A DNA stretch of 64,000 nucleotides. Source: Nitrospirota bacterium. GTDB taxonomy: Bacteria; Nitrospirota; Thermodesulfovibrionia; Thermodesulfovibrionales; Dissulfurispiraceae. The notes beneath the pieces were generated by a model. It did no database searches. It saw nothing but the letters and a program-made list of their open reading frames with translations, and was not told the origin of the DNA. The translations under genes and the position numbers were made by a program. Each line of letters begins with the position of its first letter. Within the stretch, counting starts at the first letter, position 1. Location of the stretch: assembly GCA_963790025.1 (NCBI GenBank), contig CAWBMP010000004.1, positions 1,504,001 through 1,568,000 of the forward strand. The letters run 5' to 3'. Below are positions 5,779 to 9,718 of this stretch, piece by piece.

Positions 5779-6521
5779 TACCTGTATCAGTCGTCATAGC
5801 GGCAAAGAACGAAGAACGGAATATAGAAGACGCGCTTCAAAGCGTCAGCCGATTCGGAGAAATAATCATAATCGACGACTTCAGCTCAGACAGTACGATA
5901 TCTATCGCTAAAAAATATACCGACAAAATTTCTCAGGTAGCATGGCAGGGCTACGCAAGGCAGAAGCAGACAGGCATAGACAAGGCATCGATGCCCTGGG
6001 TTTTAGTGCTCGATGCGGATGAGCGGGTTACAGATGCCCTTGCTGATGAAATCAGGACGGCCATTGAAAGCTCCACGTATAATGCCTACTACATCGCACG
6101 GAAAAATTTTTTTCTCGGCAGGTGGATACGTCATGGAGGCTGGTGGCCCGATTATACATTGAGGCTGTTCAAGAAAGACACCGCCAGAATGGAACAGCGG
6201 GAAGTGCATGAAAAGATAGTAGCCGATGGAAAGACAGCCTATTGCAAAAATCCCATGGAGCATTACACGTACAGGCAGATTTCGGATTACATCAAAAAGA
6301 TGAATACCTACTCCGCGCTGGCAGCAAAAGAACTGCATCAAAAGGGGACCCCGTCCAGATTTTATCAACTTATCGTCAAACCGCCCGCCACCTTTTTGAG
6401 GATGTACATTTTACAGCAGGGTTGCAGAGACGGCTTTCACGGGTTCGTGCTTGGAGTGCTTTACAGTTTCTATACATTTCTAAAATACCTGAAGCTGTGG
6501 GAGATTGAAAAATTGCCATAA
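5775..6521 (+). CDS. Glycosyltransferase family 2 (WaaE/KdtX-like LPS beta-glucosyltransferase)
   Basis: IIDDFSSD.T, WVLVLDADER, GGWWPDY.LRLF, VHE, DG.HG. Confidence 0.88.
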   Translation: MIPVSVVIAAKNEERNIEDALQSVSRFGEIIIIDDFSSDSTISIAKKYTDKISQVAWQGYARQKQTGIDKASMPWVLVLDADERVTDALADEIRTAIESSTYNAYYIARKNFFLGRWIRHGGWWPDYTLRLFKKDTARMEQREVHEKIVADGKTAYCKNPMEHYTYRQISDYIKKMNTYSALAAKELHQKGTPSRFYQLIVKPPATFLRMYILQQGCRDGFHGFVLGVLYSFYTFLKYLKLWEIEKLP

Positions 6522-6555
6522 AATTTGGCTGTTTGGTATAATAATAAGTTCTAAA

Positions 6556-6629
6556 GGCGGTGTAGCTCAGCTGGTTAGAGCATGCGACTCATATTCGCAG
6601 TGTCCGGGGTTCGATTCCCTGCACCGCCA
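6556..6629 (+). tRNA. tRNA with CAT anticodon, most likely elongator tRNA-Met; CCA not encoded
   Basis: GGCGGTG/CACCGCC acceptor stem, TAGCTCAGCTGGTTAGAGC D arm, TGCGA-CTCATAT-TCGCA anticodon arm, GGTTCGATTCC T arm. Confidence 0.93.
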
Positions 6630-6899
6630 CTACCTTTTTGTTATGTCCGTGACCCCATAATTTGGCCGTTGCAAGTGTGGGGTTATTTATATAATAATTT
6701 AATATTTATAAAGTTATATCAATAAGATATAGACCTAATTAAATTGTTATATATAATAGCTCCCCGAACTTTACGGAACAAGCCGACGAAGCTATTTTCT
6801 TCAGACCGAAGCAATACCCGCGTTCTGCATTATTTTCACGCTTTTGGATTCCGAGGCTTGCCCTTTTAAATCCAACCGTACTAAGATTCTTACAACCCT

Positions 6900-7187
6900 A
6901 TGGGCGAATCAAATAATAAGGGCTGGTGTGTATACGTGCTCAAGTGCCGGAATAATTATCTGTACATTGGGATAACTAATGATCTTGCTGCCCGTATGAA
7001 AGCCCATGCAAATGGTACTGGCAGCAAGTTTGTGAGGGCTTGGAAGCCGTTTGAGCTTGTAAAGGTGCTATCATGTAGGGATGGCAGAGAGGCACGCAGT
7101 TTGGAGTACCAGTTAAAGAAGTTGAAGCGGATTAAAAAAATGTCGACTCTGGGCTTGACGGATAAGGAACAGCTGCATAAAGTTTAA
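6900..7187 (+). CDS. Small GIY-YIG nuclease (YhbQ/UPF0213-like)
   Basis: WCVYVLKC....LYIGITNDL..RM..H..G.GSKF, A..LE.QLKKL. Confidence 0.85.
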   Translation: MGESNNKGWCVYVLKCRNNYLYIGITNDLAARMKAHANGTGSKFVRAWKPFELVKVLSCRDGREARSLEYQLKKLKRIKKMSTLGLTDKEQLHKV

Positions 7188-7310
7188 CTCATCGTGCAAT
7201 AATAGGCAGTATGGGAACAGAAAAAATACTCGATTATTTGCCGGAATTTAATGATTAAATGCACATATGCAAGCCTGAACATCCCGCTGGAATTTTCAAT
7301 ATATTTTTTC

Positions 7311-8509
7311 TTATTTAGATAAGATGTACCCTCTGTTCTCCTTCAGCATCTTGAAAATAACACGGCAAAGATGACGACCAAGCGCACGTAGTGCCTGGTT
7401 ATGTTTCTTGCCTTCAGCTCTTTTTTTCTCATAATATTGTTGAGACTGCGGAACTTGTTTTCGGTGCCGATCTACGGCAACCATCATTGCGGCCTTAGCC
7501 CGAGTATTAACCTGCGTTGGTGGTTTTGATCCTTTTTGCTTGCCTGAACTATTGTCAAGATTCGCCATCCCAATATACAGAGCCAGACTTGCTTCGCTGC
7601 CAAAGCGCTCGATAGTTCCAATCTCTCCGGCGAGTTCAGATGTACAAATGGAACCGAATCCTGGAATGGTTGCGAGCGTTTGCGCAATATCCGAGCCGTG
7701 TGCAACACCCTCCATCTTTGCTTCAAGTGATTTTATCTTGGCATGGAGTTCCATCACGCGGATTGCATCTTCCTGGATCATTTCACCGACCCACTCGACG
7801 TCGTGACTAAACTGTGCTGTTTTCTGCCATTCAACAATAACAGAGGCATATTTCTTACCAATGCCCGGATCTTGCGGATAGTTGTTTCCCGCATGCGTGC
7901 AAGCGTGCGAAGGTCATCCGTGCTGGTCAGAAATCCAAGAAACCACATATTGTCGGCCTCACCGGTAATCTCCAGAAGTCCCGGACATACAGCGTGAAGA
8001 TCGGCCTGTAGGTTGTTTACTACCCGTACTCGCTCATCGACCAAACGACGCCGGCGCCGTGATAGCCGCTTTAGAATGTCGTTGTCCCGCGGCGTTTTGC
8101 GTACCTCCTGCAGCACATCCTTGGCTATCGGCAGATGATCTCGAAGCTGAAAAAGCTCCAGTCCTTTCCTTGCGTCGATTGCATCGGTCTTCGCGGCACC
8201 GGGGAATATCTCCTTGAATCGAGCAAGCTTGAGATTGTTGATATTGAAGAGGCGATAATTGCGGGCTCGAACGAGCGTGTCCAGCGGACGTGCGTAGCCG
8301 TTGAAGCCCTCCATTGCTACGGCAACGGGACAACTAAACCTTTGCTCCTGCTTCTCGATGCGACAGAAGAATTGCCGGAACCCTTCAGGTTCATGCACGA
8401 TTGAGAATTCATCGAGGACTTCACCGCTGGATAGGCCGATTGCAACGTTGTGACTGCGGCAGCCAATATCGACGCTTACACGCAGTTCGAGGGGATCATC
8501 TTTTTTCAT
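7311..8509 (-). CDS. IS110 transposase/recombinase, split by a one-base frameshift near 7865
   Basis: VSVDIG, VAMEGFNGY, KTDAIDA (RuvC-like DEDD) in 7778-8509; TIPGFG, Y.G......SSG, ALRALGRHL in 7311-7781; one added C restores KIPGIGKKYA. Confidence 0.88.
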
Positions 8510-8519
8510 GTAGTCTCCT

Positions 8520-8726
8520 TTGCAGACAAGATTATCATCCTCAGGTCTCGTCTACTTACAGAGCCACATTTGGCACCATCCCGGTCGACCCTTTTGAGGA
8601 TGATGCAGATGACGGAGGCGGCATTTCAGACTCAAGTGAGCCTGAATGAACAGGCCACTGACCCCACAAGCCACACCCCCGTTAAGCATATCTTACATGA
8701 ATAAAGCTGCCATAGTCATCTGCATA
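8520..8726 (-). ncRNA. Predicted IS110 bridge RNA (target-binding loop followed by donor-binding loop)
   Basis: Perfect stems 8534-8543/8595-8604 and 8603-8613/8715-8725; internal-loop segments match element ends and flanks; boundaries approximate. Confidence 0.7.
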
Positions 8727-8749
8727 AATCCTATGGTAGACCCCCATGA

Positions 8750-9718
8750 ACCCTGCAAGGAGTCCGCAAACTTGTTTCGCTGTGGTTTTTTTATGAGGAC
8801 GTTCTCCGGCAGGTTGCTTCTATTAATTGCGGGGGCAACAAGACATTGCCGGCATATGGAGCGACGTGCAAACTTTGTCAGTGGCGGACTGTCTGCATCG
8901 ATGAGGTGAGCAAGGCAGAGGACCTGACGTTAATCCCGGAGCTGGGGCGGTCGAAACAGGATGACATGTTGCCATACATAAAAAACCTTTCGGACTTGGC
9001 TGATATCAATGTAGATTCTCTCGTTCAAGGTAAGAAAACCGTTATCCCTGGTGTCGGCCCGGCGACTTTGACAAAATTTCAGACCAGTGCCCGGCTGCAG
9101 TTGAACGGGTCCAGGCCATTTATCACGGAGCCGATAAGCTTCCTAAAAACCGAAAAGCAGCTTTTTTTTGATATCGAAACCGACCCTATGCGGGATATTT
9201 GTTATCTTCATGGGTTTACAGAGCGAAACAATGGGGATAGCAGCAAGGAAAAGTATTTTGCTTTCTTTGCTCTTGAGCCTACGCCGATGGAAGAAGAAAA
9301 GGCTTTTGCCGAGGCCTGGGAATATATCCGGGCTTCGCGGCCATGTTCTATTTATTATTATTCAAAATATGAGCGGACGATATGGAGGAAGCTTCAGAAA
9401 AAATATCCGCAGGTTGCAACGGAAGAAGAAGTAGAGGAGTTATTTTCTCAGGAACAGTCTGTTGATCTTTATTATGATGTTGTAAAGCCGAAAACTGAGT
9501 GGCCGACGCGGGATTATTCTATAAAAACTCTTGCAAAATATCTCGGGTTCTCATGGCGGGATGCGGACCCCTCCGGGGCCTCGTCGATAGAGTGGTATCA
9601 TAGGTGGGTAGAGTCCAAGGATGATTCTATTCGCAGGCGGATATTGGAATACAATGAGGATGACTGTATCGCCACGCGGGTTTTGCTGGATGGGATTATT
9701 GAGATGACGATGCGGTAA
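8750..9718 (+). pseudogene. TM0106-family RecB-like nuclease, 5'-truncated; retains the HhH-like region and C-terminal RNase H-like domain
   Basis: C..C.W...C, IPELGRS, FFDIETDP, YYYSKYER, YSIK.LA..LGF.WRD, YNEDDC.AT; frame stays open upstream of the TTG at 8846 only to ~8750, next to the IS110 end. Confidence 0.75.

Follow-up and report, generated by a model that had tools for sequence, protein, structure and literature searches.

The closest described systems to the locus analysed here are IS621 and ISCro4 (IS622), insertion sequences (IS) of the IS110 group whose recombinases combine a DEDD RuvC-like domain, a coiled coil and a Tnp domain with a Ser-Gly pair, and which have a long left end, a short right end and a left-end bridge RNA with its target loop preceding its donor loop. 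According to the passages of PMC11208160 available to us, the left target guide (LTG) and left donor guide (LDG) of IS621 base-pair with the bottom strand and so have the sequence of the top one, the right target guide (RTG) and right donor guide (RDG) are complementary to the top strand, and all four include the core dinucleotide; the same passages describe a promoter formed at the junction of the joined ends in IS110 elements, and IS110 members that insert into repeats of the repetitive extragenic palindromic (REP) type are already known from them. In the available part of PMC11208158, two bases 3' of each core-binding segment of the IS621 RNA (positions 81-82 in one case) are mismatched to their own DNA yet match the other one once strands have been exchanged, acting as handshake guides. 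Here we describe an element within a 64,000-nucleotide stretch (the window) of contig CAWBMP010000004.1 from a Nitrospirota bacterium, which we judge, with a probability of about 0.9, to be an insertion sequence of the IS110 group whose movement relies on recombination guided by a bridge RNA, with TC as the core. Positions are those of the window, and features lie on its minus strand unless marked (+).

The element occupies 7279-8740 (1462 bp including one copy of the TC core; intact copies measure 1463 bp) and is one of six copies, 99-100% identical, in a genome of 3.45 Mb on five contigs. All six terminate at identical positions, with divergence in the copy alignment starting outside GGGG/TC...TC/AGG; the sequence common to them runs from GGGG-TCTACC... 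on the left through ...CGGGATGT-TCAG on the right, and inside the element they differ at no more than three positions. The left flanks of the copies are dissimilar apart from (T)GGG(G). The right flanks (AGGCTTGC[A/G]T...TGCATTTA, and AGACTTAA in copy 6) are alike without being identical, and are therefore target DNA rather than part of the IS. Non-coding ends of 229 nt on the left (8738-8510) and 32 nt on the right (7310-7279) enclose two overlapping open reading frames (ORFs), at 7778-8509 and 7311-7781.

The core dinucleotide is TC, found at 8740-8739 in the left junction (TGGGG-TC-TACC) and at 7278-7277 in the right junction (GATGT-TC-AGGC), and TC stands at both junctions in all 41 aligned rows, from this genome and from relatives, that have both ends. 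Unoccupied copies of the target repeat read TGGGG-TC-AGGC at the insertion point, and TC is assigned as the core because no other dinucleotide is shared by both junctions (ATGT-TC-AGGC on the right) and this empty site. Exact counting over the whole genome gave 12 occurrences of TGGGGTCAGGCTTG and one of CATGGGGGTCAGG (at C3:268474, on contig C3), and none of either TGGGGTTCAGGCTTG or CATGGGGGTTCAGG, the last being the empty site expected by an original prediction made from the letters of the window. At C3:268474 the unoccupied site shares 13 nt with the left flank of the window copy and 23 nt with its right flank; the left target flank, CATGGGGG (8741-8748), stands there within the same 13-mer, joined directly to TCAGG.

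The original prediction had quoted the end strings ...CGGGATGT TCAGG (7286-7274) and CATGGGGG TCTAC (8748-8736) faithfully and had named the ends of other copies as something to compare; the six near-identical copies do share the same termini. Set against these copies and the unoccupied sites, its crossover point is one base off and its boundaries are misplaced. The GT core that it proposed gives way to TC on the evidence of the six copies, the unoccupied sites and the motif counts, and its donor CGGGAT-GT-CTAC and target CATGGGG-GT-TCAG are replaced by a donor junction CGGGATGT-TC-TACCAT and a target (A/C)(A/T)TGGGG-TC-AGGCTTG. It had also named a G-run error as a possible reason for a left target guide that was one base out of register. 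The unoccupied paralogue on C3 has the same five Gs as the left flank of the window copy, so the extra G is not a sequencing slip, and with a TC core the register problem is gone.

Two Pfam families place the recombinase in the IS110 family, as originally predicted: PF01548 (DEDD_Tnp_IS110; E = 3.9e-22) covers the RuvC-like domain in the N-terminal part (7778-8509) and PF02371 (Transposase_20; E = 3.8e-15) the Tnp domain with its conserved serine in the C-terminal part (7311-7781). These parts lie in different frames because of a 1-base deletion at 7866-7869 (the loss of one C from a short run of Cs; alignment column '-C-CCC') that splits the gene in copies 1 (the window copy) and 3, whereas copies 2, 4, 5 and 6 encode one intact protein of 399 aa (ORF in locus L002; such numbers denote the loci compared). 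The sole short-read contig across this site, from run X1, has the extra base, and the frameshift may therefore be real or an assembly error. The intact protein likewise matches PF01548 (E = 7.2e-21) and PF02371, and passes the NCBIfam model NF033542, 'IS110 family RNA-guided transposase', with 164.6 bits against a cutoff of 140. Residues D14, E67, D109, D112 and S322-G323 (399-aa numbering) are invariant in 18 relatives, with S322-G323 falling, on alignment, in the region of the IS621 Ser-Gly loop. A phmmer search of the PDB gave no match at E ≤ 0.001 and, at E ≤ 10, reached ISCro4 and IS621 with the C-terminal domain only (E ~0.003), so that a comparison of folds was needed. An AlphaFold 2 (AF2) model (predicted local distance difference test score, pLDDT, 88.6; predicted template modelling score, pTM, 0.81) was therefore compared with the PDB by Foldseek, and the ten best matches were all chains of ISCro4 or IS621 (E 1.2e-11 to 1.3e-10; 14-16% identity over ~395 columns). 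Next in the list came Nop5-type proteins, which agrees with a link reported in the abstract of 10.1101/2024.06.21.599552. The model thus indicates a recombinase ~15% identical to IS621 yet of the same fold. The description 'divergent' in the original prediction suits the protein; in other respects the element is a standard bridge system of the IS110 group, and its family is very abundant, comprising at least 3124 clusters at E ≤ 1e-20.

Relatives were collected from one genome per species, giving 69 related loci with 27-91% protein identity in Nitrospirota, Deltaproteobacteria-type metagenome-assembled genomes, Binatia, Gallionella, Methylococcaceae, Kangiella and other hosts; a 77%-identical protein in Geotalea daltonii is annotated as an IS116/IS110/IS902 transposase. 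Covariation of the RNA and its guides was assessed in ~50 of these relatives (49-91% protein identity), using an alignment, A1, of 48 distinct left ends. The predicted bridge RNA, of ~190 nt (8536-8725, with putative ends), comprises a target-binding followed by a donor-binding domain in both a constrained fold and the consensus fold. The RNAalifold consensus of the 48 left ends contains 47 pairs, 22 of them with compensatory changes, and the left-end RNA of the window has a z-score of -3.7. When the structure named from the constrained fold of the window was laid over the relatives, 93.3% of cells were paired, compared with 36-48% when it was slid, and 0 of 500 shuffles reached the observed values on all five measures. 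Folding and covariation of the left end, which the original prediction had suggested examining, thus bear out its RNA of two loops, in which the target loop precedes the donor loop. The unconstrained minimum free energy (MFE) structure of 8510-8741 was discarded in favour of the constrained fold and the alignment, since it pairs the guide segments together and hides the loops.

The strands of a closing stem, P1, lie at 8715-8725 (5') and 8603-8613 (3') and form a perfect 11-bp complement, ATGCAGATGAC / GTCATCTGCAT (8725-8715 / 8613-8603), already quoted correctly in the original prediction; P1 is also present in the consensus and constrained folds. Compensatory changes occur in relatives within its core, where 8718-8723 pair with 8605-8610 (window sequence GCAGA(U)/(A)UCUGC; GC 27, AU 13 and GU 5 at one pair), so the extra stem enclosing the target loop is real, with conservation extending over about 6 bp. 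Of its 11 bp, the inner three compete with an extended outer stem of the target loop that covaries better (GC 27 and AU 21 at one pair). The named structure takes its register for this outer stem from the MFE structure of the window, which differs by one base from the family consensus; compensatory changes are far more numerous in the consensus register, the better supported of the two, and the inner 3 bp are therefore probably unused in the family. Within the target loop, seven of nine pairs of the inner hairpin (8635-8659) have changed on both sides in relatives (UA 31, CG 8 and UG 8 at one pair). A second closing helix, CAUCC/GGAUG, surrounds the donor-binding domain and is conserved without covariation, and the outer stem of the donor loop varies in a compensatory manner (GC 38, CG 4 and AU 3 at one pair), as does its inner hairpin (GCCA-AAUG-UGGC, 8563-8574; CG 43 and UA 5 at one pair). 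This inner hairpin (A1 columns 193-213) takes a 4-bp tetraloop form in the window, L008-L011 and L018 and is 15-25 nt long in most other relatives, and is a variable, probably dispensable module.

All four guide segments were located where the original prediction had placed them (UGUGGGG at 8668-8662, CUGAA at 8629-8625, CGGGAUG at 8583-8577 and GUAGAC at 8555-8550), with the strand logic published for IS621. On the 5' side of the target loop, LTG UGUGGGG with core UC (8660-8668) fits the AATGGGG-TC of copies 2 and 4 with seven matches and one G-T wobble; on the 3' side, RTG AGUCU with core GA (8626-8632) pairs with TC-AGGCT through one G-U pair and exactly with the TC-AGACT of copy 6. In the donor loop, LDG CGGGAUG(GU) (8575-8583, 5' side) is identical over CGGGAUG to the right-end top strand CGGGATG-TT(C), and RDG GUA with core GA (8551-8555, 3' side) is complementary to the left-end TC-TAC.

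All four guides track their DNA partners in relatives, and it is because of this covariation that the guide matches can be said to exceed chance. Over positions -1 to -8, the LTG matches the left flank at 268 of 416 positions (52 rows) compared with 247 ± 4.5 on permutation, and over +1 to +7 the RTG matches the right flank at 167 of 287 (41 rows) compared with 139.9 ± 5.4; none of 10,000 permutations was as high in either case. Clear examples for the LTG are UUAAGGGG-UC with TTAAGGGG-TC (L051), UGGGGG-UC with TGGGGG-TC (L055) and CAUGGGG with CATGGGG (L020), and a further guide/flank case is ACUUGA with TCAAGT (L026). There are also misses: L012-L014, which share one genome and one guide, sit in AAGGGGG, GAGAGG and AATGGGG. 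For the RTG, pairing is seen at +5 in 28 of 41 rows and at +6 in four of 41; the three targets with A at +2 all have a guide U, and all 34 guides with C face G. The RDG follows the left end in 55 of 55 rows, TCTAT going with AU(A/G)GA (7/7) and (T/C)CTAC with GUAGA (48/48). The LDG offers one compensatory case, L053, in which CGGGAUG/CGGGATG has become UGGAAUG/AGGAATG. The covarying positions are thus -4 to -6 on the left, +2 to +5 on the right and one in each donor guide.

The IS has as its natural target a ~27-bp repeat, at whose outer end it inserts and which borders a multi-copy gene for a Y1 transposase resembling the REP-associated tyrosine transposases (RAYTs). The right part of the repeat at the window locus (AGGCTTGCATATGTGCATTTA..., 7252-7276) is a solo copy of the repeat that elsewhere flanks such genes. 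The genome contains 20 copies, of which five are preceded by an IS end; of the 15 unoccupied ones, 14 read GGG(G)-TC-AGGCTTG. Inverted pairs 977 bp apart (for example C4:1215133-1216109, L077) enclose a 316-aa ORF that matches Pfam Y1_Tnp (E = 6.7e-16), scores 76.9 with the REP-associated tyrosine transposase model, just under its cutoff of 80, and has a weak match to a DnaA-type helix-turn-helix (HTH) domain (E 6.7e-4, under the Pfam cutoff). Besides C4:1215133-1216109 this cassette is found in at least four places (C5:55801-56777, C5:249367-250343, C4:1209020-1211457 and C5:494855-495416), with its inverted repeats (GGGGTCAGGCTTGC[A/G]T..TGCATTTA) spaced by 977 bp, 2.4 kb or 561 bp, and it looks like a RAYT/REP system that is multi-copy in its own right. 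IS copies 2, 3 and 4 sit on cassette ends and the window copy on the solo repeat. The flanks of 33 relatives' loci were scanned through 122 of their 205 stop-to-stop ORFs, the 83 under 130 aa being dropped. In five of these loci, from different lineages (L010, L012, L028, L041 and L051), a Y1_Tnp ORF begins within ~170 bp of the IS right end, and a DnaA-type HTH is matched in all but L041 (under the Pfam cutoff in L028).

Some further features of these flanks deserve mention. The 9-13 nt to the left of the insertion point, including xTGGGG(TC), often occur two or three times in tandem (L010, L023, L024, L028, L036 and L041), and the same duplication is seen in the source genome on C5 near 56777 and at C3:268440-268510; examples are GAAAGCTGGGGTC-GAAAGCTGGGG/TC (L023), GGAAACAAT-GGAAACAAT-GGGG (C5) and a doublet of the whole repeat (C3). 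These duplicates may reflect the biology of the repeat or may be footprints of past insertion and excision. Relatives of the IS often stand among mobile or defence-type genes (L012:2-757 (-), L018:3787-4197 (-), L037:3347-4165 (+) and the flanks of L032 and L040), such neighbours including a reverse transcriptase fragment, a Mutator-family transposase, HEPN/nucleotidyltransferase pairs and a Phd/YefM antitoxin; one flank ORF is a SpvB family match.

Three other explanations were weighed against a bridge-RNA-guided element with a TC core. That the same element uses the GT core, with the donor and target first proposed for it, is extremely unlikely and already contradicted by the data. A GT does lie near both ends (8741-8740 and 7280-7279), and CUGAA and GUAGAC each reach one base further than the TC model needs, an extra base that fits the junctions after insertion. 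However, the two GTs differ in register relative to the conserved ends; the pre-insertion allele on that hypothesis would be GGGGGTTCAGG, and the genome counts given above fall on the side of TC; a GT core leaves the LTG out of register, whereas with TC it is in register in five of the six copies and across relatives; and the extra pairs are what handshake positions should resemble. The proposal that the element is a dead relic without current mobility we regard as very unlikely. Its basis is the split gene of the window copy and copy 3. Against this, four of the six copies encode the full protein, the near-absence of differences among copies points to recent spread, and the deletion itself may be an assembly error given the intact short-read contig.

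A third alternative, also very unlikely, is that the left-end structure is merely a 5' untranslated region or a protein-binding end that regulates the transposase, its matches to ends and flanks being by-products that guide nothing. Most guide and target positions are near-invariant, so that much of the agreement could be shared ancestry. Yet where guide positions vary, the partner DNA changes with them, both in unrelated host flanks and in the element end (the 55 rows of the RDG); the varying positions lie in internal loops between covarying helices; and the family and fold of the protein are ones shown to use such RNAs. Several observations nevertheless count against guided recombination around TC, or temper the case for it. 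Because most guide positions are near-invariant the covariation rests on few positions, and the significance from permutation is overstated because relatedness is ignored and the six own copies are included. The left flank of the window copy fits the LTG over GGGG-TC only; the LDG does not pair with the base that precedes the donor core, staying unchanged whether that base is T, A or G, and leaves the second core base unmatched. The core was derived from paralogous copies of the repeat, because no syntenic pre-insertion allele of the window locus was found in the genomes of 20 relatives, among which the sole same-genus genome with the IS carries it, at 89% identity. Rfam 15 gave no match over the element in a scan of 6400-9400 at E ≤ 1, its two matches both falling on a tRNA gene at 6556-6629 (one of them tRNA-like and under the gathering score). 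Finally, no RNA sequencing run containing this stretch was found, and joints of a circle or of excision were absent from the assembled DNA contigs, stretches without contig cover being uninformative.

With the protein family, the ends, the TC core, the covariation of the RNA, that of the guides with DNA and the nature of the target established here, a cycle for the bridge-guided element can be proposed by analogy with IS621. A -35-like hexamer, TTGAAA, lies in the right end (7294-7299), 15 nt before the right core, and a -10-like hexamer, TACCAT, opens the left end (8733-8738), where TA(C/T)CAT is invariant in 47 relatives of A1. Circularisation would bring the two to a spacing of 17 nt, and a TTG hexamer stands at an equal distance in 35 of 36 relatives (TTGAAA in 24; TTGCAA, TTGTAA or TTGATA in 11; L053 is without one), which is consistent with promoter function across the circle junction. 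The element would thus excise as a circle, joining ...TTGAAA-N15-TC to TACCAT... and creating a sigma-70-type promoter that would transcribe the ~190-nt RNA from the left end. The first internal loop would hold target DNA and the second the circle junction, and the DEDD/Ser recombinase would exchange strands at TC; the system may be programmable. Each loop has one candidate handshake base, these being the extra bases of CUGA-A and GUAGA-C that fit the post-insertion junctions: of the G that precedes the target core and the T that precedes the donor core, A8625 in the target loop would pair with the T alone and C8550 in the donor loop with the G alone. C8550 may simply be part of the outer stem. 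The window copy has a frameshifted gene with RNA and ends intact, and could therefore be served in trans by the four copies whose gene is whole.

It can be seen that the element has the sequence features of the IS110 group: both protein domains, a match to the family model, the fold, no terminal inverted repeats, a core at both junctions, the end lengths, a two-loop RNA and guide matches. It resembles IS621 and ISCro4 in each point of recombinase and end architecture set out at the beginning, in its predicted promoter split over the joined right and left ends and in guide strand logic, here with the core included in all guides except the LDG. As far as the available passages describe those systems, it also shares with them insertion into repeated extragenic sequences and a base before the core that first mismatches and then matches, as in handshake guides. 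It differs from both in its protein (14-16% identical; 399 aa rather than 326-341), in having a long-range helix that closes the target domain and the separate CAUCC/GGAUG helix closing the donor domain, and in its single candidate handshake base per loop, without an Rfam model match. It differs from IS621 in its specific target and in its core, TC rather than CT, and its RTG pairs ~5 nt past the core, compared with the four-base RTG quoted in the accessible text of PMC11208160.

The IS1111 group belongs to the same recombinase family and likewise targets the terminal repeat of another mobile element, to judge from the title of Partridge and Hall (2003) as cited in the part of PMC11208160 seen. 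There, the RNA of IS1111 elements is placed in the right end, which is long, and their subterminal inverted repeats measure 7-17 bp, unlike the left-end RNA, 32-nt right end and imperfect subterminal repeat with 4-9 bp exact found here, and membership of IS1111 was rejected on the right end and the imperfect repeat. That repeat joins 7288-7300 (AAAT(T)CC(A), right) with 8722-8731 ((T)GGA(A)TTT, left) and flanks the donor guide region. In 29 of 37 rows its exact match spans at most 4-5 bp, and in the other eight 6-9 bp; in some relatives it is perfect over 7-9 bp with both arms changing jointly (AAAATCCCA/TGGGATTTT in L010; AATTTCAA/TTGAAATT in L051 and L055), exceeding the 2-3 bp quoted for the IS110 group in the literature passages at hand. 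ISPpu9 and ISPpu10 of Pseudomonas putida, according to published abstracts, similarly insert into multi-copy repeats of the REP type. They differ in hosts and guides, and the repeat used here is the inverted terminal repeat of a multi-copy cassette of Y1_Tnp plus HTH, an association seen in five of 33 relatives' loci.

Beyond the target repeat of the window copy lies a 95-aa ORF (6900-7187 (+)), directly past the solo repeat, whose N-terminus presumably resembles a GIY-YIG nuclease motif. The tRNA gene (6556-6629 (+); Rfam RF00005, 67.7 bits) is ~650 bp from the IS and has the anticodon loop CUCAUAU in the alignment.

We conclude that this is an ordinary IS110-family element with its own bridge RNA, and that the original prediction was right in kind and wrong on the core and the empty site. 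The bridge RNA could be read straight from raw sequence, and paralogous empty sites were needed to place the core correctly. For biology this adds little beyond Durrant et al. (2024), the finding being an IS110 element whose left end encodes a bridge RNA and whose insertion site is a repeat. In the passages available, the published changes to the IS621 core all retain T as the second base (AT, GT and TT), and the passages of the bridge-RNA literature consulted contain no statement on natural TC cores; we do not claim the TC core as unpublished. Neither TCTACCAT nor GGGATGTTC occurs in the part of the supplement text of PMC11208160 examined, which is weak evidence that the ends of this clade are unlisted there. 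A broader proposal, for which we put the odds at slightly less than even, is that the element belongs to a large, deeply divergent clade (~15% identity to IS621) spanning at least six phylum-level groups, with a natural TC core whose second base is C, two separately closed RNA domains and guides tuned to the terminal repeats of RAYT-like Y1 elements. Its natural TC core and its distance from IS621 could interest those seeking orthogonal bridge recombinases with other core constraints and, were the proposal true and the element active and reprogrammable, it would provide such a recombinase with a different core rule. The repeated presence of the clade at the borders of Y1/RAYT-like cassettes in distant hosts suggests stable parasitism of one element on another and, if the proposal holds, would be a clear case of one mobile element specialised on the ends of another across phyla.

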